NCBI GenBank assembly: GCA_035297365.1
Contig: DATGZA010000053.1
Span: 1 to 21,560 of the forward strand
Origin: Nitrososphaeraceae archaeon
GTDB lineage: Archaea > Thermoproteota > Nitrososphaeria > Nitrososphaerales > Nitrososphaeraceae
Direction: 5' to 3'
DNA length: 21,560 nucleotides
Shown here in pieces: positions 1-18,413 of this stretch. The position numbers were made by a program, and so were the translations under genes. Within the stretch, counting starts at the first letter, position 1; every line of letters begins with the position of its first letter. Below the pieces are notes generated by a model. It made no database searches. It had not been told where the DNA came from and saw nothing but the letters and a program-made list of their open reading frames with translations.

Positions 1-236
1 GAAACTCTTGTCCTATAGATTTGAAAAGATCCAACTTGATTCAATTTGAGATGTAACTTCTTTTGTTTTCATCTTTAGAAGATTTCAATGTCTTTATTTT
101 TCAGACTGACAGGGAACAAGAAAGTAAATAAATACAGAGAAAAATACATCATTATCATCAATCATGGATTGTTAGAAAGAAATAGGACCTTATAGATGAA
201 TAAATATCGTTAAACTAACACAACGATGATATCTGA

Positions 237-1631
237 TCAGGCCTTTTCATCAGTTGTATTAACAAAGTTTTTGTAGATAAAAAGTGCGTCTTTTTCGTCT
301 TTTGCACCGACAATAGTTGCTGCACCACTGGTCATAAAACTTACAGATAATTGTTGAGATGGATTAGTGTTATTAGATATAACAGTTATTCCCAAAGTTC
401 CACGAGTTTTCAAGTTATAACCTAACAATTCTGCATTTTGTATTATTTTATTTAGATTTATATCAGAAGGTATTTCCATTGGTGTAACAGTATAGGTCCT
501 TTTTCCTCTATCTCTACCACATAATTCCTCAATTATGAGATTATGTTCTGTTTCTAGGTGTTTAATCATATCTACCTTTTCTTTTCCACATGACGGGCAT
601 TCATCATGTCTAAACATCCTAATACGTTCGAATGATAACTCGTTAAGATCGATGTACAATAGTGTATTTACCAAAGTTGGTTTCTGGTTCAATAATATTT
701 TTACTGCTTCTGAGACTTGAAGGCCCGCCACTAAATAAAGAATAGATGGATGAACTCCTTCTGTACTACAAGTTGGCATATCATCTTCAGACAATGCAGG
801 AAAGATGCATCTTAGACAGGCAGAATTGTTTGGAAGAATTGTACAAACTGATCCCAACATTCCTAATGCACCTGCATAGATCAAAGGAATGTTGTGCTTA
901 ATGCATGCATCGTTTAATGCATATCTAGCATCAACACTATCTAAAGCATCAATAACAATATCAAAGCCTTTAACAATATTTTCTGCTGTATAGGGAGTAA
1001 CTGAAATTGGAAGTGCTTCAATTTCTACGTCTGTATTCCTTTTTTTCAGATGCTCTATAGCTGCTTCAACTTTAACTTTTCCAATATCTTGTTCAGTATA
1101 CAAATGCTGTCTATGTAAATTAGATATTTCAACTACATCTCTATCAACAATACGGATCTTTCCTATACCCATAGCTGTTAATTGAGTTACAACTGGATTT
1201 CCAATGCCACCAACACCGACCACACAAACTTTGGAATTTCTTAATTTCTCCATTCCAATAAATCCTATTTCTTCTAACATTATTTGTCTAGAATAACGCT
1301 GAATGTCTTTACTATCTAGTTCATTACGAGTTACTACGGTGGGTTTGTTTGAACCTCCGGCTACTGCAGGAAGGATATAGATAGAATCACCTTCATTAAG
1401 AGATGTGGTCATTCCATCCTTGTTAAAACGCATATTTTTTCCATTAATATATATGTTAATTAGAGCACGAGGTTTGCCATTAAGATCAAATACCCTACGT
1501 TTGAAATCATCACCCAAGATATCTGAAGCCTTATTGAAAGCATTTTGTAGATTGTCAGCTTCTAATGATACTTTTTTTTCTCCAGCTCCCTTGTTTAAAA
1601 CAGATGGAATTATAAACTCGACTTTAACCAT
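237..1631 (-). CDS. Fusion protein: N-terminal MoaD/ThiS/SAMP ubiquitin-like domain + ThiF/MoeB/UbaA E1-like adenylyltransferase + small C-terminal domain
   Basis: aa 1-93 look like a beta-grasp domain ending INIYINGKN...LNEGDSIYILPAVAGG. E1 motifs follow: RYSRQI, VVGVGGIG, DRDVVEISNLHRQ, DALDS, Zn ligands CLRC/CPSC and the catalytic-loop Cys in PTCSTEGV. The ~100 aa tail ending SGAATIVGAKDEKDA resembles the TBP-like tail of some MoeB proteins. Confidence 0.93.
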   Translation of the reverse strand: MVKVEFIIPSVLNKGAGEKKVSLEADNLQNAFNKASDILGDDFKRRVFDLNGKPRALINIYINGKNMRFNKDGMTTSLNEGDSIYILPAVAGGSNKPTVVTRNELDSKDIQRYSRQIMLEEIGFIGMEKLRNSKVCVVGVGGIGNPVVTQLTAMGIGKIRIVDRDVVEISNLHRQHLYTEQDIGKVKVEAAIEHLKKRNTDVEIEALPISVTPYTAENIVKGFDIVIDALDSVDARYALNDACIKHNIPLIYAGALGMLGSVCTILPNNSACLRCIFPALSEDDMPTCSTEGVHPSILYLVAGLQVSEAVKILLNQKPTLVNTLLYIDLNELSFERIRMFRHDECPSCGKEKVDMIKHLETEHNLIIEELCGRDRGKRTYTVTPMEIPSDINLNKIIQNAELLGYNLKTRGTLGITVISNNTNPSQQLSVSFMTSGAATIVGAKDEKDALFIYKNFVNTTDEKA

Positions 1632-1678
1632 TTATATCTATCTCACTTACCTTTCACATATATTATTTATTCATTTTA

Positions 1679-2902
1679 TTATCTTATCATTGCTGAGACT
1701 ATTTGAACATCTGGTTTAATGATTGAAGGTTTAGGTAATATCTCTGTAATTGCCTCAATAGATTTGAGACCATTTCCAGTAATATAACAAACTATATTAG
1801 AATCTCGATCTATCTTTCCTTCATCAATTAACTTTTGCATTACAGCAACGGACACACCGCCTGCAGGTTCCGTAAAAATGCCTTCTGTTTTAGATAGTTT
1901 TAATATTCCAGCTATAATTTCTTGATTTGTAGCTGATTCAGCAAAACCATGATATTGTTTTAATCTTTTTAAAACGTATATTCCATCTCCAGGATCGCCT
2001 ATAGCAAGACTTTTTGCTATTGTATCAGGCTTTTCTACCGGAAATACTTCATCACTATTGGATTTAAAAGCATCAACTACAGGCGAACAACCATGAGGTT
2101 GTGCTGCAATTATCTTCAAATTGGAAACATCTTCGATTAATCCAATCTCATTTAATTCTTCAAATCCCTTACAAATTGCATTTAGCATTGCACCACTTCC
2201 AACAGGTATTATCAAGTAATCAGGTACTTTCCAATTAAGTTGTTCGGCTACTTCATAGGCAAGTGTTTTTGATCCCTCTACATAATATGGCCGCATATTA
2301 ATATTTACTATACCTATACCTTTTGAATCTCCTATTACAGAAGCTACTCTATTAGCATCATCATAAGTTCCATCAACAGCAACAAATTTACCGCCGTAAG
2401 CTAATGCTTGGGCAATCTTTGCATATTCTAAATCAGCGGGAGCAAATATGTAACAAGGCATGTTAGCTACAGCTGCATGTGCAGCAGTAGCAGATGCTAG
2501 ATTACCGGTTGAGGCACATCCCACTGCCTTAAGATTAGTTTCTTTTGCTCTTGATACAGCCACACCAGCTGGTCTATCCTTGAATGAAAATGTTGGATTA
2601 ACAGAATCATTTTTTACATATAATGTTGTTAATTTTAGATCCTTACCAAGATTATTTGCTTTTTGTAATGGAGTAAATCCTGAGTTAATACTCACAATAT
2701 TATTTTTATTTTTAATTGGTAATAATTCAAAATATCTCCAATATGTCTTTTCTGTCCTAGACTCGAAGGTCTCTCTTTTTATTGAATCTGGATAAATATA
2801 TTTAACATCGAGTGGACCAAAACATTCTTCGCATACATATCTAAATGATGGTTCATATTCCTTTCCACATTCTCGACACTTTAATGATTGTATTATTCCC
2901 AT
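1679..2902 (-). CDS. thrC: Threonine synthase-like PLP enzyme (fold type II) with N-terminal Zn ribbon
   Basis: CRECG...CEECFGPL; PLP-lysine motif NPTFSFKDR; ASTGNLA; EGSKTLAYE; PVGSG; EGIFTEPAGG; ITGNGLK. Ends 47 bp upstream of the Ubl-E1 gene on the same strand. Confidence 0.88.
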   Translation of the reverse strand: MGIIQSLKCRECGKEYEPSFRYVCEECFGPLDVKYIYPDSIKRETFESRTEKTYWRYFELLPIKNKNNIVSINSGFTPLQKANNLGKDLKLTTLYVKNDSVNPTFSFKDRPAGVAVSRAKETNLKAVGCASTGNLASATAAHAAVANMPCYIFAPADLEYAKIAQALAYGGKFVAVDGTYDDANRVASVIGDSKGIGIVNINMRPYYVEGSKTLAYEVAEQLNWKVPDYLIIPVGSGAMLNAICKGFEELNEIGLIEDVSNLKIIAAQPHGCSPVVDAFKSNSDEVFPVEKPDTIAKSLAIGDPGDGIYVLKRLKQYHGFAESATNQEIIAGILKLSKTEGIFTEPAGGVSVAVMQKLIDEGKIDRDSNIVCYITGNGLKSIEAITEILPKPSIIKPDVQIVSAMIR

Positions 2903-3081
2903 TTATGATAATTTGAATAAAAATCCATTGTAGATAAGGTTCTCTAAACACAAATTTAGTAATACTATAATTTTATATTATTAAAAAAATAGAATATTAA
3001 AACAAAATAGTATCATAAAACTTCATATTATAGATATTATATAAAAATTTTTCCAAATTTGTGATAATTTTTTAATGATTT

Positions 3082-3414
3082 TTATTTTTTTAGAATATTA
3101 TGAAAACAAGAATTGTGACCTGTATGACATGCTGGTTTTTCTGAATTTACTATATAGATTAGCGCATCTGAATCACAATCAACTAAGATTTCTTGAACTG
3201 GTTGAATATTTCCTGATTCCTCACCTTTCATCCATAATTTATTATGAGAAGTACTCCAAAACCATGCCTTTCCAGTTTTGACTGTATTTTCGAGTGCAAT
3301 TCTATTTACATATGCAAGCATAAGGATATCTTTAGAAATCTTATCTTGAACAATTACTGGTAACAGACCACCCCTTTTTGCAAAATCTATTTCATCTATT
3401 ATTTTTAAAGACAT
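3082..3414 (-). CDS. hisI: Phosphoribosyl-AMP cyclohydrolase
   Basis: GLLPVIVQD, LMLAY, LWMKGEESGN, DCDSDAL, ACHTGHNSCF motifs. Confidence 0.96.
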   Translation of the reverse strand: MSLKIIDEIDFAKRGGLLPVIVQDKISKDILMLAYVNRIALENTVKTGKAWFWSTSHNKLWMKGEESGNIQPVQEILVDCDSDALIYIVNSEKPACHTGHNSCFHNILKK

Positions 3415-3604
3415 TATCTTGTAATGTTATTTTTAGATATAAAAAAGTAATCGTAAAAGTAGTAAGGGTAAAGGTAATTATCATACAAATTTATAGATTT
3501 CCCAAATACTGAATATTTGCAATATATTAAAATAAATTCGTTCTAAAATAAATTTGTAGAAAAATTAAGCATTCTTTAATATAGGATAGAAGAAATATAA
3601 AAAG

Positions 3605-4981
3605 ATGATGGATAAAAGTACAAAAGCAGATAATAATATTCTCCATATTGGTTTTGATGACACAGATTCTAGATCTGGTAGATGTACAACTCATTTAGCT
3701 TTTAAAATATTATCGAATTTAAAAAGAAATCAATCTATAAAATTTTTAGATTATCCATTGTTAATTAGATTAAATCCAAATATACCTTGGAAAACTCGAG
3801 GTAATGGTGCTGTCTGTATCAGATTGAGAACTAGAAATAGCAAAGATATTGAAAGGATAATAGAATATATCAAAAATGAGATAGAACAAAATTCTGACAT
3901 AGGAATAGGGGCTAATCCTGGTCTTGTTTTTTTTGAAGGAAGAAACATTCCCAATGAAATTATAGAATTTAATAGAATTGCAATGTTTGATATCTTAAGT
4001 AAACAAAAAGCAATCAAAATTGCTGAAAAGAATAAGATGAAATTTTTCTGTTATGGAAATGGACAGGGATTAGTTGGCGCAACAGCTGCAATTGGGTGCT
4101 TGTTAGATTCAGATTATACATTTGAAGTAATAGCATATAGAAAAATAGAGAATTGTCAAACTCCAAGAAAGATCGATTCCATAAAGGTTATTTATCTTGA
4201 CCGTTCTACATTTCCGTCAACTTATAATTGCTATGATCATGTCCATGAACGAATATTGATTACGCCGCATGGACCGGATCCGGTTTTCTGTGGTATAAGA
4301 GGAGAAGATCCGGAAATTGTATTAGAGGGATTAAAGATGTTGAAAATAGAAGAAAAATTAGAAGGCTATCTGATTTATAGATCTAACCAAGGAACAGGGA
4401 TGCATTTAATAAATGAAATCAAATTAGGTGATGTTAAGGCGTATACATCAGGTATTTCTAGGTGTAGAGTGACAACAAATCCTTACACTATGCAAGGAGG
4501 TCATGTATTTTTTACGGTAGAAGATGATTCAAAGAATAGTTGTCTGGCAGCAGTATATGAGCCAACTGGATTAACAAAAGTTGCTGCACAATTGCAGAAA
4601 GGCGATTTAATAGAAATTGGATTTGGAGTAAGGAAAGCAACCATCAAACATCCAACGGTATTAAACATAGAATATATCTCAATATTGGAAACTATCCAAA
4701 TTTATGAATTTGTTAATCCTAGTTGTGTAAATTGTGGAAAAAGAATGAAATCTGAAGGAAAGGATAAAGGTTTTCAGTGTAAAAGATGTAAAACTTTAGA
4801 CAGGTATGGGAAAAAAGTGCCTTTATTAAATCCACGAACAATTAAAGAAGGTTTATATGTTCCAACTCCAAAGGCACATAGACATCTGACTAAACCTAGA
4901 CATAGATACGGAATTGAAAAAAAAGGATGGGATATATCAAAGAATAATATTTTTCCAAAATGGTTTGGAATTATTGGATAA
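3605..4981 (+). CDS. tiaS: tRNA(Ile2) agmatinylcytidine synthetase
   Basis: IGFDDTDS..CTTH, RLNPNIPWKTRGNGA, PHGPDPVFCGIRG, OB-fold GGHVFF...AAVYEPTG, Zn ribbon CVNC..CKRC, HRHLTKP. Confidence 0.96.
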   Translation: MMDKSTKADNNILHIGFDDTDSRSGRCTTHLAFKILSNLKRNQSIKFLDYPLLIRLNPNIPWKTRGNGAVCIRLRTRNSKDIERIIEYIKNEIEQNSDIGIGANPGLVFFEGRNIPNEIIEFNRIAMFDILSKQKAIKIAEKNKMKFFCYGNGQGLVGATAAIGCLLDSDYTFEVIAYRKIENCQTPRKIDSIKVIYLDRSTFPSTYNCYDHVHERILITPHGPDPVFCGIRGEDPEIVLEGLKMLKIEEKLEGYLIYRSNQGTGMHLINEIKLGDVKAYTSGISRCRVTTNPYTMQGGHVFFTVEDDSKNSCLAAVYEPTGLTKVAAQLQKGDLIEIGFGVRKATIKHPTVLNIEYISILETIQIYEFVNPSCVNCGKRMKSEGKDKGFQCKRCKTLDRYGKKVPLLNPRTIKEGLYVPTPKAHRHLTKPRHRYGIEKKGWDISKNNIFPKWFGIIG

Positions 4982-4993
4982 CATTTAAATAAG

Positions 4994-5115
4994 TAGCGGG
5001 GGGTTGATTTGAACTTACGGCCACCAACATATCGATTTTGGCGGAAACCGCTCTGCGGGTTATGAGCCCGCCGGGATAACTTTGCCTATTAAATATCTGG
5101 CTTCCCCACCCCGCT
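4994..5115 (-). tRNA. Initiator tRNA-Met (CAT) with two non-canonical introns (5081-5096 at position 18/19; 5015-5045 at position 52/53)
   Basis: Spliced 75 nt: AGCGGGG TG GGGA AGCCAGGTTA TCCC G GCGGG CTCATAA CCCGC AGAGC GGTTG TTCAAAT CAACC CCCCGCT A. A1:U72 and three consecutive G-C pairs in the anticodon stem are initiator hallmarks. CCA is not encoded. Confidence 0.92.
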
Positions 5116-5319
5116 GAATCATTTTTGTATTTTACAACTATATATCTCTGTCTATTTAGTTCATAAAAATTTTTTTTTAAATAATATACCTTTTTTTACA
5201 TTAACAATACAAAAATTCAAGAAAATAGTTTTTATTTTTTATTTTCAAGAAATTTTTAACAAATATTGTATTTATAGTTAAAAGATTACTGAATAAGATA
5301 CAATTAATAAAACAAAAGA

Positions 5320-5439
5320 TGCGGGAGGTGGGATTCGAACCCACGAACCCCTAAGAGATGAGGTTTCTAAGCCATGCTTCTGAGCATCGTGTTATATGAA
5401 AATAATCTCACGCCTTTGACCAAGCTTGGCAACTCCCGC
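5320..5439 (-). tRNA. tRNA-Leu, probably CAG, with two introns (5386-5406 at 30/31; 5365-5378 at 37/38)
   Basis: Spliced 85 nt: GCGGGAG TT GCC AAGCTTGGTCAAA GGC G TGAGG CTCAGAA CCTCA TCTCTTAGGGGTTC GTGGG TTCGAAT CCCAC CTCCCGC A. Long variable arm and A73 indicate Leu. The anticodon call depends on the inferred splice sites. Confidence 0.88.
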
Positions 5440-5589
5440 TTTGAGTAAGAACAATTATCTAAGAAGTCAAATAATAGTTTTTTTTATTATAAAACAATAC
5501 AAAAATTGAGATATATGAAATATATCTAATAAAAACTAAATTTATTATCCGATAAACATGGTATTCCTACATCATTACATGCAATTTAT

Positions 5590-5735
5590 TTGTCGAACAG
5601 CCTGCTTATGAATGGCAAAATAGTTCATTTTTGTTATGTAGATGGTACACAATCTTCTTGTAATCATATTTCATCTTTTATCTTTCTGTATCTTATCTTT
5701 ATGTATCTCCCGAGTTTTTCGTACTGAGGTACAAG
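5590..5735 (-). pseudogene. Degraded C-terminal fragment of an IS5/IS4-superfamily DDE transposase
   Basis: Frameshifted translation VPQYE..RYRKIK / YDYKKIVYHLHNKNE / TILPFISRLFD resembles the Y..R...E..F..IKR.F region of archaeal DDE_Tnp_1 transposases. Recognised from memory, not searched. Confidence 0.5.
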
Positions 5736-5764
5736 ACATATCTCCTTGTATCGTTTAAGCACAA

Positions 5765-5990
5765 TTCAAAATAATATATTCATCATGCCTTTACACCAAA
5801 AGAACAAAACTACAAAAAAAATACACTAAATTATCTATTGTGGATGTAATAAAAAGATAATCTGATTTTTAAACAAAAATAAGAAGAGTATTTATACATC
5901 ACGATAACACAGATTTCAAATCCGCTGTAACATACTGTTGCACTATTACAAATACTTACTATATGTTGCTCGACTATGTATATATTTGAA
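5765..5990 (+). pseudogene. Degraded central fragment of an IS5/IS4-superfamily DDE transposase
   Basis: Single frame with two stops: FKIIYSSCLYTKRTKLQKKYTKLSIVDVIKR*SDF*TKIRRVFIHHDNTDFKSAV...MLLDYVY. This matches the order GFK...Y.KL.I..D...KIRR...HD..DF...(A)DKGY of archaeal IS5-like transposases. Confidence 0.62.
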
Positions 5991-6229
5991 CTCTAGAATA
6001 TTTTAGAATATGATATAGTGATTATCCTAATTTAATGTATTCGAGAAATTTTTGTTCAATAATATTGCATGGCATTTTCTGAGTCTAATATCAAGTTGAA
6101 AAAAATGTAATCACTATATATTGATTAACAAAACTTCATTTACAAATTCTTTCTATAAAAAATGTTTATTATGCTTGAAAATGATATCTTCAATATCTAT
6201 AGAATACGAAATTTAGTTAGTTACTGTAG

Positions 6230-10824: not shown

Positions 10825-12297
10825 ATGACTGAAGTAATAATTGCAAAGTTTGGAGGAAGTACTATTGGACAAAATGGTGAACAGATACCAAAGGTGATAG
10901 AAAGAATAAAACTAATCAAAAATGAAGGAAACAAAATTGTAGTAGTTTTTTCTGCTCCTTTAATGGAATACGAAGGAAAAATAAGATCCATGACAGATAT
11001 TGCTATAAATATTGGTAGAAAGTATGCATCAGGACAAAAAGTAGATACGAAAATTTTTTATGATACATACCTAAACATTGCAATGAATTATGTGTCTGAG
11101 AAATATTTGAATGAATTTGAATATCACCTCGAAGAATTTTATCATTATGTTACTGTCTCTTTGAATAATTCAATTGAAAATAAAAGATTCATAGATGTTA
11201 ATAGAGCAAGAACTCTTGCATATGGAGGGGAAATTACTATGTCATATCTAATGGACTATATTATGAGAAGTAATGGATTAAAATCGAATCATGTAGATAT
11301 TGAAAAATGGCCTATAATTACTGATGATAATTTTGAAGCTGCAAATTTTATGATTGAAGAATCCAAGGAACGCAAAAAACATCTTCTTCAATTAATAGAA
11401 GAAAATGAAGTAATATCTATTGGTGGTTTTATTGGTAAAACTACAGATGGTTTAGAAACTACATATGAAAGGGGAGGTTCCGATAGAACTGCTGCAGATA
11501 TTGCTATTATTCTTCATGATAATTATAAGACACAAATAGATTTTGAAAAAGATAATATTGTTCTTAGTGCAGATCCAAAAATTGTAAAAGACAATCTAGA
11601 ATCAATAAAATATTTATCGTATAATGAAGCTAAATTAGCTGGGATGTTCGGAATGAAAATTCTAGACCCTATAGCAATAAAAGAAATAGATGATAATAAA
11701 TTGGATATCCCAATAGTTATAACCTCGATCATTAATCCTTTAAACGTTACAATAATTCAAAAATCTTTAGATAACAATAAGAAAATTTTTGAACATAAGG
11801 ATAATAAGAAGGATAGGAATGTTTCAAATTCTTTAATCAAAATAGTAACAGGAAAAAGAAATTGTGCTATAGTTAGAATGGAGAGCATAAACGCATCTTA
11901 TTTAATAGCATCACTGGAGAAAGATAAACAATATTATAATTTCTTAAAATTATCCCCATATAAAATTGATGACATGGAGATTACTAGACTATTATTTTTG
12001 GATGCAGATTATGTAAAGCGTCATGAGCGACATTTCAAAGCATTCTATCCGAAAACAGAATTTTCATATGGAAGAGGTGTAGTTACATTAATAGGAGATT
12101 CTATGTGGAAAATGCCAAAAATTGTGTCTTCCGCAAGTAGAACTTTAGGAGATAATGATATAAATATATTGAATTTAGATGCTCAAGAAGAAACATCAAG
12201 GATTTTAATAATAGTTGAAGATATAGACAATAATGTTGCCAATGCAATAAAGGCAGTTCATTTACAAAGAATTACTAATAATAGTAAGAACAACTAG
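10825..12297 (+). CDS. lysC: Aspartate kinase with C-terminal ACT-like domain
   Basis: IAKFGGST, VVVFSA, GGFIG, ERGGSDRTAA, SADPKIV, LSYNEA..GMKIL; ACT-like VTLIGDSM...NINI. Confidence 0.88.
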   Translation: MTEVIIAKFGGSTIGQNGEQIPKVIERIKLIKNEGNKIVVVFSAPLMEYEGKIRSMTDIAINIGRKYASGQKVDTKIFYDTYLNIAMNYVSEKYLNEFEYHLEEFYHYVTVSLNNSIENKRFIDVNRARTLAYGGEITMSYLMDYIMRSNGLKSNHVDIEKWPIITDDNFEAANFMIEESKERKKHLLQLIEENEVISIGGFIGKTTDGLETTYERGGSDRTAADIAIILHDNYKTQIDFEKDNIVLSADPKIVKDNLESIKYLSYNEAKLAGMFGMKILDPIAIKEIDDNKLDIPIVITSIINPLNVTIIQKSLDNNKKIFEHKDNKKDRNVSNSLIKIVTGKRNCAIVRMESINASYLIASLEKDKQYYNFLKLSPYKIDDMEITRLLFLDADYVKRHERHFKAFYPKTEFSYGRGVVTLIGDSMWKMPKIVSSASRTLGDNDINILNLDAQEETSRILIIVEDIDNNVANAIKAVHLQRITNNSKNN

Positions 12298-12332: not shown

Positions 12333-13253
12333 ATGAATAATGGTCATATTTGGATAGATGGATCTTTCTATAAATGGGATGAAGCAAAAATACATGTTTT
12401 AACCCATTCTCTACATTATGGAACGGCGGTATTTGAGGGAATCCGTTGTTATAATACTGTTAAAGGTCCTGCAATATTCAGATTAGAAGATCATGTAAAT
12501 AGACTATTTAATAGTGCCAAAATATATTTCATGAATATTGAATTTTCCAAAGAACAAATAGAAGATGCAATAATTGATACTACCAAAAAAAATAGAATAG
12601 ATGAATGCTATATTCGGCCGTTAGCTTACTTTGGTTATGGAAAAATGGGAATTAATCCATTAAGCAATAAGGTATCTGTAGCTATTGCGTTATGGAGGTG
12701 GGATGAATATCTAAAGAAAGAAGATGTCAATCATGGAGTCAGAGTAATGGTATCAGGATGGATGAGAATAGATGCAAGAACGATGCCTATTCATGCAAAA
12801 GCAACTGCCAATTATGCGAATTCAGCTTTAGCAAGAATTGAAGCTATAAAAGCTGGATTTGATGAAGCTCTCATGCTAAATACTGATGGAATGGTAGTCG
12901 AAGCTAGCGGGGAAAATATTTTTATTGTTAAAAATAATGTTTTAATTACTCCTCCGACGGCTTCCGGTGCATTAGAGGGAATAACACGTGATACAGTATT
13001 AAGATTAGCTAAGGATGATAATATAATTACTGAAATTCGTGATATATCAAAAGATGAGTTGTATTTAGCAGATGAAGTATTTTTGACAGGTACTGCTGCT
13101 GAGATAAAGGCAGTGGGAGAAATAGATAACAGACGTATAGGAAATGGTGGTATAGAAAAAATCACTCTTCAGTTAAAAAGTTTATTTGATGATCTAACAA
13201 GAGGCAACCACAAATACAGTACCGAGTGGCTTAGCTACATAAACATAGATTAA
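12333..13253 (+). CDS. ilvE: Branched-chain amino acid aminotransferase
   Basis: HSLHYGTAVFEGIR, FRLEDHVNRL, YIRP, AKATANY, EASGENIF, LEGITR, ADEVFLTGTAAE. Confidence 0.95.
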   Translation: MNNGHIWIDGSFYKWDEAKIHVLTHSLHYGTAVFEGIRCYNTVKGPAIFRLEDHVNRLFNSAKIYFMNIEFSKEQIEDAIIDTTKKNRIDECYIRPLAYFGYGKMGINPLSNKVSVAIALWRWDEYLKKEDVNHGVRVMVSGWMRIDARTMPIHAKATANYANSALARIEAIKAGFDEALMLNTDGMVVEASGENIFIVKNNVLITPPTASGALEGITRDTVLRLAKDDNIITEIRDISKDELYLADEVFLTGTAAEIKAVGEIDNRRIGNGGIEKITLQLKSLFDDLTRGNHKYSTEWLSYINID

Positions 13254-13885: not shown

Positions 13886-14983
13886 TTGGATATGCAGAAT
13901 AACTATAGACCATTGATCTGGTTGATAGCTGGTGTATTCTTGACAGCAAATTTGCCAACTATATTAGAACAAACATACGCACAGATCACTATAAATGGAG
14001 CAGGAGCAACGTTCCCATTTCCATTAATAGACACGTGGAGGGTTGAATATCAAAATGTTAAACCTGACGTAAATATCAATTATCAATCTATTGGAAGTGG
14101 GGGAGGAATAAAACAGTTTACAGAAAAAACAGTGGATTTTGGAGCGACTGATGCTCCGTTAAATGAGGAAGAAGAGAAGAAAGTTACTGGTGCAGTACAT
14201 ATTCCTGAGACTATTGGATCTGTTGTAGTTGCCTATAACTTGCCACAGATATCAGATAAGGAGCTCAAATTAACTGGTCCTGTAATTGCTGAAATATTTA
14301 TGGGTAAGATAACCAATTGGAATGATCCAAAAATCAAAGAGATCAATCCTGATTTAGATCTACCTGCAGATAGCATACATGTGGTACATAGATCTGATGG
14401 ATCTGGCACAACATTTGTATTTACAGATTATTTATCTAATGTTAGCTCACAATGGGAAGCAGAGATAGGCAAAGGAAAGTCAGTTCCATGGCCTATAGGA
14501 GTAGGTTCTCCAGGAAACGAGGGTGTTAGTGGTTCAGTAATAAGTACACCTAATTCAATTGGATATGTTGAATTAAGTTATGAATTGACTACCGATCTTG
14601 ATTCTGCTTCTATTCAAAACAAGGAGGGTAATTTTATAAAACCATCTTTGAATTCTACTGCAGCTGCCATATCAGCCTCAGCGACAGGTCTACCTAAAGG
14701 TACTGATTCATGGAAAGATGTTTCAGTGGTCAATGCCCACGGCGGTGATTCGTATCCTATAGCAAGCTTCACTTATCTGTTACTCTTTAAAGAACTAGGT
14801 ACTAATCCATCTATTGATGAGGCCAAAGCCAAGGCATTAGTTGATTTTATATCTTGGGCCATTACTGATGGACAGAAATTTGGTTCAGAGCTAGGATATG
14901 TTCCTTTGCCTGATCAAGTCGTAAAACTTGATCAAGAAACACTCAAATCATTGACATTTAAAGGAAACCCAATACTTCAATAG
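13886..14983 (+). CDS. pstS: Phosphate ABC transporter substrate-binding protein
   Basis: GAGATFP, YQSIGSGGG, VDFGATD, HRSDGSGTT, IGYVE, YPIASFTY, GYVPLP. Start is TTG 13886 or ATG 13892. Confidence 0.97.
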   Translation: MDMQNNYRPLIWLIAGVFLTANLPTILEQTYAQITINGAGATFPFPLIDTWRVEYQNVKPDVNINYQSIGSGGGIKQFTEKTVDFGATDAPLNEEEEKKVTGAVHIPETIGSVVVAYNLPQISDKELKLTGPVIAEIFMGKITNWNDPKIKEINPDLDLPADSIHVVHRSDGSGTTFVFTDYLSNVSSQWEAEIGKGKSVPWPIGVGSPGNEGVSGSVISTPNSIGYVELSYELTTDLDSASIQNKEGNFIKPSLNSTAAAISASATGLPKGTDSWKDVSVVNAHGGDSYPIASFTYLLLFKELGTNPSIDEAKAKALVDFISWAITDGQKFGSELGYVPLPDQVVKLDQETLKSLTFKGNPILQ

Positions 14984-15002
14984 CTAATAACAAAAACACC
15001 AA

Positions 15003-15009
15003 TTTTTTT
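15003..15009 (+). terminator. Oligo-T archaeal terminator candidate after pstS
   Basis: T7 run about 20 nt after the pstS stop codon. Weak evidence in AT-rich DNA. Confidence 0.4.
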
Positions 15010-15266
15010 GCATTCATTATATTTGATACTTTAGATGAAAGTAATTTTCAATAATACTCTTAAATTTAATGTTTAGCAAAAGTAACAATAAATGTACAAC
15101 ACTGAAATTTTCGTATGTTTCATTTAAAGTTTTATTTAGAAAAAGAAAATCAGTGTTATTATGTTTGAAAGACATTTTTAATAATGTTGATAGAGAATGT
15201 GATATTATATCTTAGCAATATAGAAATTTTATAAAAATTTTATAATTTATATGAACTGCCAAAGAT

Positions 15267-16349
15267 CTAAATCTTGTAACTTGATGGTCTTTTTTCTATA
15301 GTTATTACTTCTCCGATAGTTTGATTTAATGCCTCTTCTGCTATGTCACTAGCATGTTCTGCAGAACGTCTTAGATGTTCGAGTACAAGTTTAATGTAAA
15401 TCTTGTTTTGATTAAAGGAATCACCAAATTTATCTAGAAGTAACACGATTTCATTTTCAAGAAGTCTCACATTTTCAACTCGATCCACTATTCTATCTGC
15501 CATCAAATAATCTCTTCTTAAAAATGCTTCAACTGAATCATTAAGATCTTGTAATGACAGATCGCTCATTTTTTTCACGTTTTCAAGAATATCAGTAGGA
15601 ATCATATCTTTTATAAACAAACATTGTTCAGTTATTTTAGAAGCATGATCTGCAATTCTCTCAATACTTTTTACGGCTGATCTATAACTTAAACAATCTG
15701 AACTATTTTTTAAGCCGATTTCACTTAACATTCTATCGTTTTTTGTAGCAATAACTAGATTTCTCAATATATAAAGACTAAACCTGTCAACTTCATCATC
15801 AGATCTAATAACAGCATTAGCTAGATCATAGTTCAACTCTGTCAAAGCAACAATCGCGTCTTTATGCATTGAAGTAGCAAGTAGAAACATTCGTCTGACT
15901 GCAGTATTTACAGAAAGCTCTGGAAGAGTAATTAAAACTTGTATTGTTATCAAATCGGAGGAATCAGCAATAATTTCTGTACCTACCAGATTTCTACGAA
16001 CAACTTCTCTAGCTGCTTCACGCTGTGATGGATTAATTCTTCCTATTTTCGATTTTAAATTTATTATATTATATCCTGCTAGATACATGGATACCAATTT
16101 ACGTTTTAGGGAATTGGCACTATCATCTTTTAGCACTTGAACAGTAGCTTCATCAACTGATTCTTTTGATGATCTAGCAATATCAGATATTATTGATAAT
16201 GTATTATCTGGTTCTCTAATGATTGTAACTGGGTCTCCTGGTTTCAAATGTAGTTCTGTTACCCATTTTTTAGGTAATGATAATACATATGTAGATTTCC
16301 CAGTAAATTGTATTTTTCTTACTTCTCCACTGTCTGAATATATTGGCAA
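15267..16349 (-). CDS. phoU: Archaeal phosphate uptake regulator: AbrB DNA-binding domain + PhoU domains
   Basis: RKIQFTGKSTYVLSLPKKWV (AbrB-like); PhoU motifs DDEVDR and ERIADHA, with a second repeat RRSAEHASDIAE. Confidence 0.93.
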   Translation of the reverse strand: MPIYSDSGEVRKIQFTGKSTYVLSLPKKWVTELHLKPGDPVTIIREPDNTLSIISDIARSSKESVDEATVQVLKDDSANSLKRKLVSMYLAGYNIINLKSKIGRINPSQREAAREVVRRNLVGTEIIADSSDLITIQVLITLPELSVNTAVRRMFLLATSMHKDAIVALTELNYDLANAVIRSDDEVDRFSLYILRNLVIATKNDRMLSEIGLKNSSDCLSYRSAVKSIERIADHASKITEQCLFIKDMIPTDILENVKKMSDLSLQDLNDSVEAFLRRDYLMADRIVDRVENVRLLENEIVLLLDKFGDSFNQNKIYIKLVLEHLRRSAEHASDIAEEALNQTIGEVITIEKRPSSYKI

Positions 16350-16485
16350 TAGTTAGAGAAAGAGAAATACTATTTGTATAGTTTATGTTAGTTGATAATA
16401 TAGATCTATCAAATATATATAGACTATATAATATATTACTAGATCAAACTATTCATAACAACACTACATAGAAGAAAATTAAAGC

Positions 16486-17412
16486 CTAATAACTTTTAAT
16501 TGAAAAGTTTTTTCGCTGAGACAATAATCGGAGAACGACATTCAAGGTTAATACAATCATAATTAGAATAAGTGCTGCACCCCATCCTTGAGCATGAGCA
16601 GATTCGTATGGTTGAGATGCCAATCTCCATATTCTAAGAGGAAGAGCATCGACAGGACCAGTAAGAGACGAGAAAAATAGACTTGTTCCTAAAATAGTCA
16701 TAATTAAAGGAGCGGTCTCACCAGCAATTCTTGCGACTGATAGAACTATTCCTGTTATAACACCACTCATGGCAGTCTTTAATACAATAAATAAAGTAAT
16801 CTTCCATTTTGGTATACCGAGAGAATGAGCTGCCTCTCTAATAGAGTTAGGTATTACTTTGAGTGTCTCTTCAGTTATTCTGCTTAAAATTGGAATCATT
16901 ATTAATGATAATGAGAAAGCTCCTGCAATAACAGAAAAAGATCCTATAGTCAAGACAATAGTGATATATCCGACAATACCAACAATAATTGAGGGAAGAC
17001 CTGTTAGAACGTCATTAAAGAATCTAACTGCAAAAGCAAATTTACTGTTACTTTTTGCATATTCTGATAGATATATTCCTGTAAGTACGCCCACAGGAAC
17101 AGCCATTAGAGAAGCTAAACCTACAACTATTAATGTTCCTTGAATGGCTGGTCCAATACCCCCTTTTCCTGATCCGATTGAACCTGGTGGTTTTACTAAA
17201 AATTCAAAACTGATAGCTGATACTCCGTTTTTCACTACCTCAAAGAGAATGCTAGCGAGTGGAATTATTGCTAGGATGACACAAGCAATTGATATAACAG
17301 TTAGTATTTTATTGACATATACTCTTTTTTTTGAATGTTTTAACATAATTTCTTCAAGATTTTTTTTTCTAATTGAGTATTGAATATCTGAATTTTTTAT
17401 ATCGTCGGACAT
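16486..17412 (-). CDS. pstA: Phosphate ABC transporter permease PstA
   Basis: GGIGPAIQGT, GIYLSEY, PSIIVG, EAA loop IREAAHSLG, ARIAGETAPL. Confidence 0.96.
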   Translation of the reverse strand: MSDDIKNSDIQYSIRKKNLEEIMLKHSKKRVYVNKILTVISIACVILAIIPLASILFEVVKNGVSAISFEFLVKPPGSIGSGKGGIGPAIQGTLIVVGLASLMAVPVGVLTGIYLSEYAKSNSKFAFAVRFFNDVLTGLPSIIVGIVGYITIVLTIGSFSVIAGAFSLSLIMIPILSRITEETLKVIPNSIREAAHSLGIPKWKITLFIVLKTAMSGVITGIVLSVARIAGETAPLIMTILGTSLFFSSLTGPVDALPLRIWRLASQPYESAHAQGWGAALILIMIVLTLNVVLRLLSQRKNFSIKSY

Positions 17413-17420
17413 TTTCTACA

Positions 17421-18413
17421 TTATTCCTCCTGAATTTTAATAGTTTTAAACACAATAGCACGCGCTACAACATTGATAGCCATTGCAAGAATGAGTAAAA
17501 CTGCTCCTAAACCGATTAAAGCAGAAAGATGCAGATCTGATGATGCTTCATTGAATTCGTTGGCAATTAGACTAGACAAAGTTTGACTCTGCGAAAAAAG
17601 AGATGTTGGTATGGCATTCAATCCAATTGTGTTTCCAATGATCAAAGTAACTAGCATTGTTTCTCCAATAGCCCGTCCTAAACCGATTATTGTAGCACCT
17701 ATAATTCCAGATTTAATATATGGTAAAACAGCCATATTTGTTGTCTCATATCTTGTAGCACCTAAACTATATGCTGCCTCTCTTTGAGAATCTGGAACTA
17801 CTTGTAACAATTCTCTGATTATTGACGAGACAATAGGGATAATCATTATTGCTAATACCACACCAGCAGTAAAAACATCTAATCCAAAAGGGGTTTTGGC
17901 GAAAAAAGGTAATGTTCCTCCAAATAAATTATGTAAAGGTTTTTCTACATAATCTACCATCCAAAATCTAAATACAAATAGTGCCCAGAATCCATAAATA
18001 ATGCTAGGAACAGCAGCTAATAGCTCTATGACAAAAGATAACAAAGTTTTCAACTTGGTTCCAGCTATTTCAGAGAGGAAGATGGCTATCGCTAAACTTA
18101 TTGGTACACCTATAAGCATTGCAATGCCAGAACTAACCAAAGTTCCTATAATATAAGGTAACGCTCCAAATGATTCTCTTCCAGGTACTGCATTCCAATC
18201 TGTACCAGTGATGAAACCAAGTCCTTCCTTTGAAAAAATTTCTTTAGAACCATCACCGACTGAAAAAACTATTAATGATAAAATAAAAAGAGTATAGATA
18301 GAAGCTCCAATTATAATCCATTTGAAAATTTTGTCAAATTTTGATGTTTGTTTTAATCCAGTTAGAGACTGGTGATTACTAATATTGTCATTTAATATGG
18401 AACCCGTGATAAT
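17421..18413 (-). CDS. pstC: Phosphate ABC transporter permease PstC; N-terminus extends about 91 codons beyond the ORF-track start, probable ATT/ATC start
   Basis: Core motifs ELLAAVPSIIYG, REAAYSLGAT, GRAIGET, IANEFNEA. The frame stays open upstream of 18140 to 18422 and encodes DKIFKWIIIGASIYTLFILSLIVF...TDWNAV..FGALPYIIGTL, a typical PstC first TM segment. Exact start is inferred. Confidence 0.9.
   Translation of the reverse strand: MITGSILNDNISNHQSLTGLKQTSKFDKIFKWIIIGASIYTLFILSLIVFSVGDGSKEIFSKEGLGFITGTDWNAVPGRESFGALPYIIGTLVSSGIAMLIGVPISLAIAIFLSEIAGTKLKTLLSFVIELLAAVPSIIYGFWALFVFRFWMVDYVEKPLHNLFGGTLPFFAKTPFGLDVFTAGVVLAIMIIPIVSSIIRELLQVVPDSQREAAYSLGATRYETTNMAVLPYIKSGIIGATIIGLGRAIGETMLVTLIIGNTIGLNAIPTSLFSQSQTLSSLIANEFNEASSDLHLSALIGLGAVLLILAMAINVVARAIVFKTIKIQEE

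Follow-up and report, generated by a model that had tools for sequence, protein, structure and literature searches.

In Mycobacterium tuberculosis, the CysM/CysO/MoeZ/Mec system employs a fold-type II pyridoxal phosphate (PLP) enzyme that takes sulfur from a thiocarboxylated ubiquitin-like protein (Ubl), and a JAMM protease then frees the amino acid. CysM belongs to the CysK/CysM lineage, uses O-phosphoserine, and yields cysteine. In Wolinella succinogenes, HcyS/HcyF/HcyD/MetY reportedly form homocysteine via a protein thiocarboxylate (Krishnamoorthy and Begley 2011, listed as reference 34 of PMC5764234), with a carrier matured by a metalloprotease; the condensing enzyme is said to be a MetY-type (PF01053) sulfhydrylase acting on O-acetylhomoserine. 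The SAMP/UbaA/HvJAMM1 system of Haloferax volcanii has one activating enzyme (E1) for several MoaD-like carriers, and UbaA possesses neither a fused carrier nor a C-terminal domain. To our knowledge, SAMP/UbaA has no known link to a ThrC-like enzyme. In this study, a two-gene operon for a ThrC-family enzyme and a Ubl-E1 fusion protein was analyzed on a 21,560-nt stretch of DNA (the window) from a Nitrososphaeraceae archaeon (assembly GCA_035297365.1, contig DATGZA010000053.1). A bacterial system of similar composition is MetM/MetO/MoeZ/Mec of Streptomyces albulus (Hasebe et al. 2024, Appl Environ Microbiol), as relayed in PMC13759103, PMC12172450 and a bioRxiv preprint.

Comparative analysis suggests, with a probability of about 0.75, that the archaeal operon makes homocysteine by a protein-thiocarboxylate route and is the counterpart of Streptomyces MetM/MetO. 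The phylogeny of the enzyme, the conserved operon, the phyletic complementarity with other homocysteine routes, and the pathway context all support this reading. The enzyme annotated as threonine synthase in ammonia-oxidizing archaea is thus probably a homocysteine synthase. An earlier, sequence-only reading of the window had recognized a zinc-ribbon ThrC-like gene 47 bp upstream of a Ubl-E1 gene; both open reading frames (ORFs) were recovered, on the minus strand, with matching domains. It had further proposed that the enzyme condenses the Ubl thiocarboxylate into homocysteine or cysteine. The comparative tests favor homocysteine, formed from O-phosphohomoserine, whereas cysteine is disfavored by a separate CysK/CysM-like gene and by relatives of the enzyme that are controlled by S-adenosylmethionine (SAM) riboswitches.

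Position of the enzyme within the ThrC family

Two trees were constructed. The first (90 rows; LG+G4, quick search) contained all labelled rows and the first 40 of 99 length-filtered representatives. The second (63 rows) used a site-heterogeneous model, and its 20 representatives were chosen after the first tree had been seen. In the 90-row tree, all 13 Ubl-linked enzymes of Nitrososphaerales grouped with 12 SAM-linked actinobacterial paralogues and 21 representatives in one clade (Shimodaira-Hasegawa-like approximate likelihood ratio test, SH-aLRT, 99). Canonical actinobacterial ThrC, a further group of the same order (clade B), and a divergent 450-aa paralogue (the D type, described below) formed the other (SH-aLRT 99). 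The 63-row tree repeated this split, with SH-aLRT values of 99 and 99. Forcing the window's clade together with the canonical one cost 152.2 log-likelihood units and was rejected by the approximately unbiased (AU) test (p 4.5e-8). The phylogeny against bona fide ThrC that the sequence-only reading had proposed separates the enzyme from canonical ThrC. The window's enzyme shares 42-44% identity with the SAM-linked actinobacterial paralogues, 36-39% with clade B, and 30-33% with canonical actinobacterial ThrC. The closest cluster representatives from outside the order (41-48% identical) include P0130 of Micromonosporaceae (43%) and proteins of Euryarchaeota and Thermoplasmatota metagenome-assembled genomes.

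Using P0130, 80 loci of Actinomycetota were fetched, and 16 of them were scanned for riboswitches. A SAM riboswitch (RF00162, 56-87 bits) was found directly upstream of the paralogue in all 16, and a separate canonical ThrC was present in each of the five genomes tested that carry a SAM-linked paralogue. An upstream SAM riboswitch is also described for S. albulus metM in the relevant part of PMC12172450.

The two clades are distinguished by 18 alignment columns, at most of which the D type shows the canonical residue. In window numbering, the MetM-type clade has L at position 135, R at 204, Y at 207, G at 307 and G at 348, where canonical ThrC has T, N, R, W and S, respectively. Positions 204 and 207 fall within the N-x-x-P-x-R-x-E-G-x-K-T motif, which we take to hold phosphate-binding residues in Thermus ThrC; the window's enzyme reads N-x-R-P-Y-Y there, versus N-x-N-P-[FY]-R in the canonical enzymes. 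In the trees and at the 18 columns, the enzyme neither clusters with solved or housekeeping ThrC nor shares their signature residues.

Profile models of the family are less discriminating. The SAM-linked actinobacterial paralogues also pass the thrC model TIGR00260 (238-246 bits), so this model is unable to separate the two functions. Among other NCBIfam models, PRK08197 scored 287.8 bits (under its cut-off of 303) and cysteate synthase 82 bits (cut-off 325); CysM-type models were absent from the 25 best matches. A homologue search returned only near-identical proteins of Nitrososphaeraceae, and public proteins 86-89% identical to the enzyme are labelled "threonine synthase [Nitrososphaeraceae archaeon]", which makes the host an uncultured representative of this ammonia-oxidizing family. 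Among 27 aligned relatives, C9 and C24 of the zinc ribbon are invariant and C12 and C27 nearly so; the region gives a weak NinF match in Pfam (24.9 bits, below cut-off). S106, K108, D109 and R110 are invariant in the same 27 sequences, and SFKDR aligns with solved threonine synthases, K108 presumably being the PLP lysine.

Domain fusions occur elsewhere in the family. Relatives of about 610-627 aa (P0143, P0147 and eight others) carry a LeuA allosteric domain, others of 478-502 aa (P0161 and eight others) a PadR winged-helix domain, and P0264 an inositol-monophosphatase/CysQ-like domain (Inositol_P). Among these fusions (LeuA_dimer, PadR and one Inositol_P), none is to a Ubl or an E1. Fusions of cysH and thrC in Thermoplasmata are mentioned in the part of PMC11237513 that deals with them.

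The operon, its carrier-E1 fusion and the homocysteine gap

A Ubl gene lies directly downstream of the enzyme gene in 13 of 13 orthologous loci from the order. It is fused to the E1 in the genus and in G021 and G030. In G020, G022, G023, G028 and G029 it is a separate gene of 91-95 aa that ends directly after GG, and in G026 it is a gene of 100 aa with a seven-residue tail beyond GG. Beyond the order, a homologue of the enzyme (E 1e-95 or better) occurs in 78 of 251 genomes of the phylum. Of 20 such loci inspected in other families, 16 had a Ubl directly downstream, fused to the E1 in one case and with an adjoining E1 in six more; among the remaining four, one was cut by a contig end and three, all from family f25, had no Ubl. 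The adjacency of the enzyme and Ubl genes is far beyond chance, and the synteny on which the sequence-only reading depended is thus conserved in relatives.

The window's own genome assembly (G000; 97.1% complete, 110 contigs) was searched for the surrounding pathway. Homoserine kinase ThrB (233.4 bits, above cut-off) and a MetH-type homocysteine S-methyltransferase domain (256.6 bits) are present. MetX was not found in G000 (best 22.7 bits), nor was a true PF01053 enzyme such as MetB/C/Y/Z (best 32 bits over one third of the model), HcyBio or MetE. By its gene content, this genome makes O-phosphohomoserine and consumes homocysteine, yet has none of the three known homocysteine routes. The sequence-only reading had proposed a check for missing cysK/metB/metY: PF01053 enzymes (metB/metY) were not found, but a CysK/CysM-like gene was (273 bits).

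The distribution of these routes was then tallied in 151 sampled genomes of the order, each at least 85% complete. Presence of the enzyme was called from 50% identity of the best match upwards; the next group lies at 41% or below. Among the 99 genomes with the enzyme, 3 possess PF01053, 5 HcyBio only, and 91 neither. Among the 52 genomes without it, 39 have PF01053 (one of them also HcyBio), 7 HcyBio only, and 6 neither. The sampled genomes are kin, so a tally by family is the fairer count. Families f1, f4, f8, f9, f11, f13 and f15 carry the enzyme without either alternative; PF01053 is found in f2, f7 and f10 (31 of 32), where a single f10 genome is the only one with the enzyme; f6, f12 and f14 have HcyBio, some members also with the enzyme. 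The six genomes without any route are G066 and G120 (both of family f13 and 99% complete), G099, G104, G039 and G122; auxotrophy, assembly gaps or a further route could account for them.

The second gene of the operon (ORF 237..1631, minus strand) encodes a protein of 464 aa that consists of a MoaD/ThiS-like domain, a ThiF-type E1, and a C-terminal part of about 118 residues. In Pfam, ThiS matches residues 54-93 at 29.9 bits (cut-off 22.5); in NCBIfam, SAMP1 (40 bits, cut-off 60) and moaD_arch (34.8 bits) fall below their cut-offs. The Ubl domain ends in LPAVAGG (residues 87-93). All 12 orthologues compared have G92 and G93, and in several of them the Ubl is a free-standing protein that terminates directly after GG. 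The linker that follows varies in length and sequence, and is missing where Ubl and E1 are separate genes. The E1 domain matches ThiF at 255.7 bits. Its closest solved relatives, E. coli ThiF and MoeB, align over about 250 residues, and no solved relative was found past residue ~257 of the E1 part. The UbaA model gives 220 bits against an equivalog cut-off of 450, and the MoeZ model covers only residues 97-348 (148 bits, cut-off 647).

Pfam revealed no rhodanese in the 464-aa protein, which differs in this from an E1 of the MoeZ type with its C-terminal rhodanese. The C-terminal domain has no Pfam family (best TBP at E 0.02), and a protein-cluster search led to nameless clusters only. C371-G372-R373...G376 is invariant in nine fused and split orthologues. 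This domain occupies the place of the rhodanese in MoeZ-type E1s and may act as a persulfide relay. The Ubl-E1 fusion is not a sequencing artifact, because relatives of the same genus share it, as do G021 and G030 from two other families, and because RNA-library contigs span the joint without indels. A MoaD-MoeB fusion of the same architecture has been surveyed in 61 of 98 Thaumarchaeota assemblies and filed under molybdenum-cofactor synthesis (PMC11237513); the sections of that survey dealing with the fusion draw no connection to a neighboring ThrC-like gene or to methionine. The same paper cites JAMM cleavage of a Deinococcus MoaD-MoaE fusion, which offers a precedent for JAMM-mediated release.

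In G000, no ThiF-family gene other than that of the window's E1 was found, and this E1 is the sole one for sulfur carriers. A second weak ThiF hit proved to be malic enzyme. A second MoaD-like gene, ending in SGG, lies within a MOSC-MoaD-MoaE-MoaC/MoCF operon, and the same E1 probably also activates this separate MoaD. Two Prok-JAB (JAMM) genes (51.1 and 44.6 bits) are present on contigs C75 and C28, neither near the operon, and either may have a role in maturation. One is weakly desampylase-like (37.5 bits, cut-off 130); it is about 4 kb from an ORF whose N-terminus, by eye, resembles a cysteine desulfurase (G000:C75:63997-64578 and C75:68409-68837). The proposed pathway would need both a JAMM protease and a cysteine desulfurase. 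In relatives, not in G000, a second E1 lies in a JAB-E1-E2 operon and was rejected as a sulfur-carrier E1. This operon (L161 1082-3777, G012:C15) comprises JAB (Prok-JAB 30.8 bits), E1 (ThiF 97 bits) and E2-like (UQ_con 23.5 bits, below cut-off) genes, resembling bacterial ubiquitin-like conjugation or defense cassettes.

A mechanism can be proposed for the operon. Homoserine kinase, whose gene is present elsewhere in the genome, would supply O-phosphohomoserine. One of the two JAMM proteases would probably cleave the 464-aa product behind Gly93, giving a 93-residue carrier with C-terminal Gly-Gly. The E1 domain would adenylate the carrier's C-terminal glycine, and a persulfide, possibly relayed by the invariant Cys371, would turn the adenylated glycine into a thiocarboxylate. 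The ThrC-family PLP enzyme would then remove phosphate from O-phosphohomoserine, and the carrier thiocarboxylate would join C-gamma. Acyl shift and hydrolysis would yield free homocysteine, which the MetH-type methyltransferase encoded in the genome may convert to methionine. The features of the operon are listed in Table 1.

Table 1. Features of the enzyme and Ubl-E1 genes in window coordinates.
Feature	Position	Strand	Basis
MetM-type (ThrC-family, fold-type II PLP) enzyme, 407 aa	1679..2902	-	ORF; PALP (Pfam) 240 bits; candidate thiocarboxylate-dependent homocysteine synthase
N-terminal four-cysteine zinc-ribbon motif (C9, C12, C24, C27)	2822..2878	-	CxxC...CxxC in sequence
SFKDR motif, residues 106-110, presumed PLP-binding K108	2573..2587	-	alignment
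Intergenic spacer, 47 bp	1632..1678	.	ORF coordinates, sequence
MoaD/ThiS-like sulfur-carrier (Ubl) domain, residues 1-93, ending AGG (91-93)	1353..1631	-	ThiS profile
Ubl-E1 linker, residues 94-112, proposed proteolytic release site after G93	1296..1352	-	alignment; predicted cleavage
ThiF/MoeB-type E1 adenylation domain, residues 113-346	594..1295	-	ThiF profile
C-terminal domain without family match, residues 347-464, C371-G372-R373...G376	240..593	-	invariant columns

No riboswitch or other Rfam family was detected within window positions 1-6000. The spacer contains no terminator-like site, and a scan for bacterial-type promoters and terminators was at chance level. The operon stretch is present in soil metatranscriptome assemblies. 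RNA-library contigs from two studies span the spacer (X1 record 2, 1269-2889; X3 record 23, 1269-2372), and a third contig (X10 record 6, 1249-1604) spans the Ubl/E1 joint, with no indels seen; none covers positions 1-120 or 3001-3600. The spacer-crossing contigs are consistent with co-transcription, although they do not prove a single transcript, as such libraries may hold DNA. Several contigs from three studies all start at position 1269, within the E1 coding region; this shared start is interpreted as assembly breaking off at a conserved motif of the E1, with an RNA processing site as the alternative.

Upstream of the operon, hisI (3082..3414) lies on the same strand and tiaS on the opposite one. 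About 8 kb from the operon, the plus strand encodes a class IV aminotransferase (12333-13253) and a 490-aa protein of the amino-acid-kinase family (10825-12297) that may be aspartate kinase, the enzyme that opens the route to threonine and methionine. Genes for a PBP_like_2 binding protein and two BPD_transp_1 permeases form a phosphate-uptake-like cluster (13886-18140) together with one for a PhoU-domain protein that carries a MazE/AbrB-like domain at its N-terminus.

Counter-evidence, alternatives and the second ThrC-family gene

Several points speak against a homocysteine synthase. The group for the AU test was chosen with the tree already in view. Ultrafast bootstrap values (LG+G4, with an iteration cap) were 88 for the window's clade and 77 for the canonical clade, the 88 falling short of 95, and the careful mixture-model search for the 63-row tree was incomplete. 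The connection to S. albulus MetM/MetO is indirect, being made through the SAM riboswitch, the taxon and citing papers. An adjacent Ubl gene occurs in only 2 of the 80 actinobacterial loci (in L103 and L104, the downstream Ubl is 31-32% identical to the window's). The Gly-Gly at residues 92-93 is internal in the encoded protein, and the operon and its vicinity contain no JAMM gene. The E1 must also serve MoaD, and a TtuA/NcsA-like tRNA thiolase gene is present in G000, so the carrier system is not dedicated by necessity. Another homocysteine route coexists with the enzyme in 8 of 99 genomes, and 6 of 52 enzyme-less genomes have none of the three routes. The enzyme scores 281.5 bits with TIGR00260, well above the cut-off of 167.1. 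It is also encoded by the only ThrC-family gene in G000, where the other TIGR00260 hits are an IlvA (473 bits to ilvA_1Cterm) and the CysK/CysM-like gene. The sequence-only reading had named a sole thrC in the genome as evidence against itself; a sole gene is what the assembly contains, and the force of this is weakened by the second ThrC of relatives and by a region that appears to be missing from G000.

That second ThrC-family gene, the D type, encodes a protein of 447-454 aa with its own zinc-ribbon N-terminus (TIGR00260 179 bits) and is found in most relatives; at least two ThrC-family matches occur in 96 of the 99 genomes of the order with the window-type enzyme. It falls within the canonical ThrC clade, but its branch is long (1.3-2.0 changes per column), which makes the exact placement less sure. 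From its sequence, the D type is probably the true threonine synthase of ammonia oxidizers. Searches found no second ThrC in G000, G012, G014 or G093. The D gene of G017, a genome that encodes an enzyme 99% identical to the window's, is located at C10:144286-145626 (L013 1284-2627; also L014 and L015). Just 805 bases of the 19-kb stretch around it match G000. None of the 12 ORFs of this stretch is closely copied in G000: five lack any hit, and the best of the rest reaches 71% identity over 80 residues. The lack of a D type in G000 thus looks like missing assembly. In G012 (98% complete, 20 contigs), the right-hand flank of the D region is 5.7 kb from a contig end. A multi-copy element of about 0.9 kb (ORF of 333 aa) lies beside the D gene (L139 7950-8888, G017:C10), and many copies with 65-87% identity occur in G012, G018, G001 and others. 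The element is probably an insertion sequence at which these assemblies break up.

These observations bear on the possibility that, in lineages without the D type, the window's among them, the enzyme is bifunctional, so that water would give threonine and the carrier thiocarboxylate would give homocysteine. The four genomes without a second ThrC would fit such an enzyme, G012 in particular being nearly complete in few contigs, and as family chemistry is generally understood, both reactions start from O-phosphohomoserine and share a PLP intermediate. Bifunctionality is nevertheless unlikely: the D-region ORFs of G017 have no close copy in G000, which points to missing assembly, the flanking genes of G012 approach a contig end in a region whose multi-copy element breaks assemblies, and the phosphate-site motif is unlike that of canonical ThrC. 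An extension of this idea, quite speculative and improbable, is that one PLP enzyme forms the branch point of the aspartate family, with carrier release and charging setting the split between methionine and threonine and with the Cys371 domain as a new persulfide-relay module in place of rhodanese.

The enzyme could also be an ordinary threonine synthase, with a Ubl-E1 that serves molybdenum-cofactor synthesis and/or tRNA thiolation and an adjacency unrelated to catalysis. The sole ThrC-family gene of the assembly, the TIGR00260 score and the public records agree with this, as do the lack of another E1 for MoaD and the classification of the fusion as MoaD-MoeB in the pertinent part of the published survey (PMC11237513). 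It is improbable in view of the tree and AU test, which set the enzyme apart from canonical ThrC, and of the second ThrC-family gene with canonical signature residues in 96 of 99 relatives. It would moreover leave homocysteine synthesis unexplained in 91 of the 99 enzyme-bearing genomes, and the molybdenum-cofactor operon already has a dedicated MoaD. The same carrier chemistry with another product, either cysteine from O-phosphoserine as in CysM/CysO or another gamma-substituted amino acid, is very improbable: thiocarboxylate-dependent cysteine synthesis is known in mycobacteria and sequence tools cannot read substrate specificity, but the enzyme is of the ThrC and not the CysK/CysM lineage, matches cysteate synthase poorly, coexists with a separate CysK/CysM-like gene, has SAM-regulated relatives, and is complementary in distribution to homocysteine routes.

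Comparison with known systems

Ammonia-oxidizing archaea are among the most abundant microbes of soil and ocean and grow on mineral media. Most of those sampled have no textbook homocysteine genes, and the operon is an obvious candidate to fill this gap. If the homocysteine synthase reading is true, the name "threonine synthase" is wrong in these genomes, the divergent 450-aa paralogue being the real one, and metabolic models of nitrifiers would need correction. The Streptomyces pathway of 2024 would then be a widespread archaeal one, with the carrier delivered as a fusion with its activating enzyme. A literature search found no text on this operon in ammonia oxidizers. The sequence-only reading assumed too much novelty: according to the citing papers, MetM/MetO of S. 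albulus has already been characterized in bacteria, which makes the finding less novel than that reading held.

Compared with solved canonical ThrC (2ZSJ, 6CGQ, 2D1F and 1UIM; 188-209 bits), the window's enzyme has the same fold and PLP-lysine motif and probably the same substrate, but it differs in its extra zinc-ribbon N-terminus, separate clade and 18 signature columns. Unlike the Wolinella route, it is encoded in a genome where PF01053 and MetX were not found. As in Haloferax, a single E1 is available for several MoaD-like carriers and a desampylase-like JAMM gene is present (37.5 bits, below cut-off).

The S. albulus system, as far as the citing papers describe it, is similar in several respects: it too joins a ThrC homologue with an E1 and a MoaD-like carrier, the substrate is likely to be O-phosphohomoserine, maturation of the carrier by proteolysis is needed there and predicted here, and the archaeal enzyme belongs to the clade of SAM-riboswitch-controlled actinobacterial paralogues, in which MetM presumably falls as well. 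Unlike metM in those accounts, the archaeal operon has no riboswitch and no nearby JAMM gene. Unlike MetO, the archaeal carrier is fused to the N-terminus of its own E1, and unlike MoeZ, this E1 is rhodanese-less and has instead a C-terminal domain with an invariant cysteine. In Actinobacteria the carrier is adjacent in only 2 of 80 loci, whereas the three functions lie in one operon across Thermoproteota. In sum, Streptomyces already provides the reaction type; the novelty lies in the archaeal host, an operon widespread across Thermoproteota, the carrier-E1 fusion, and the replacement of the rhodanese by another C-terminal domain.

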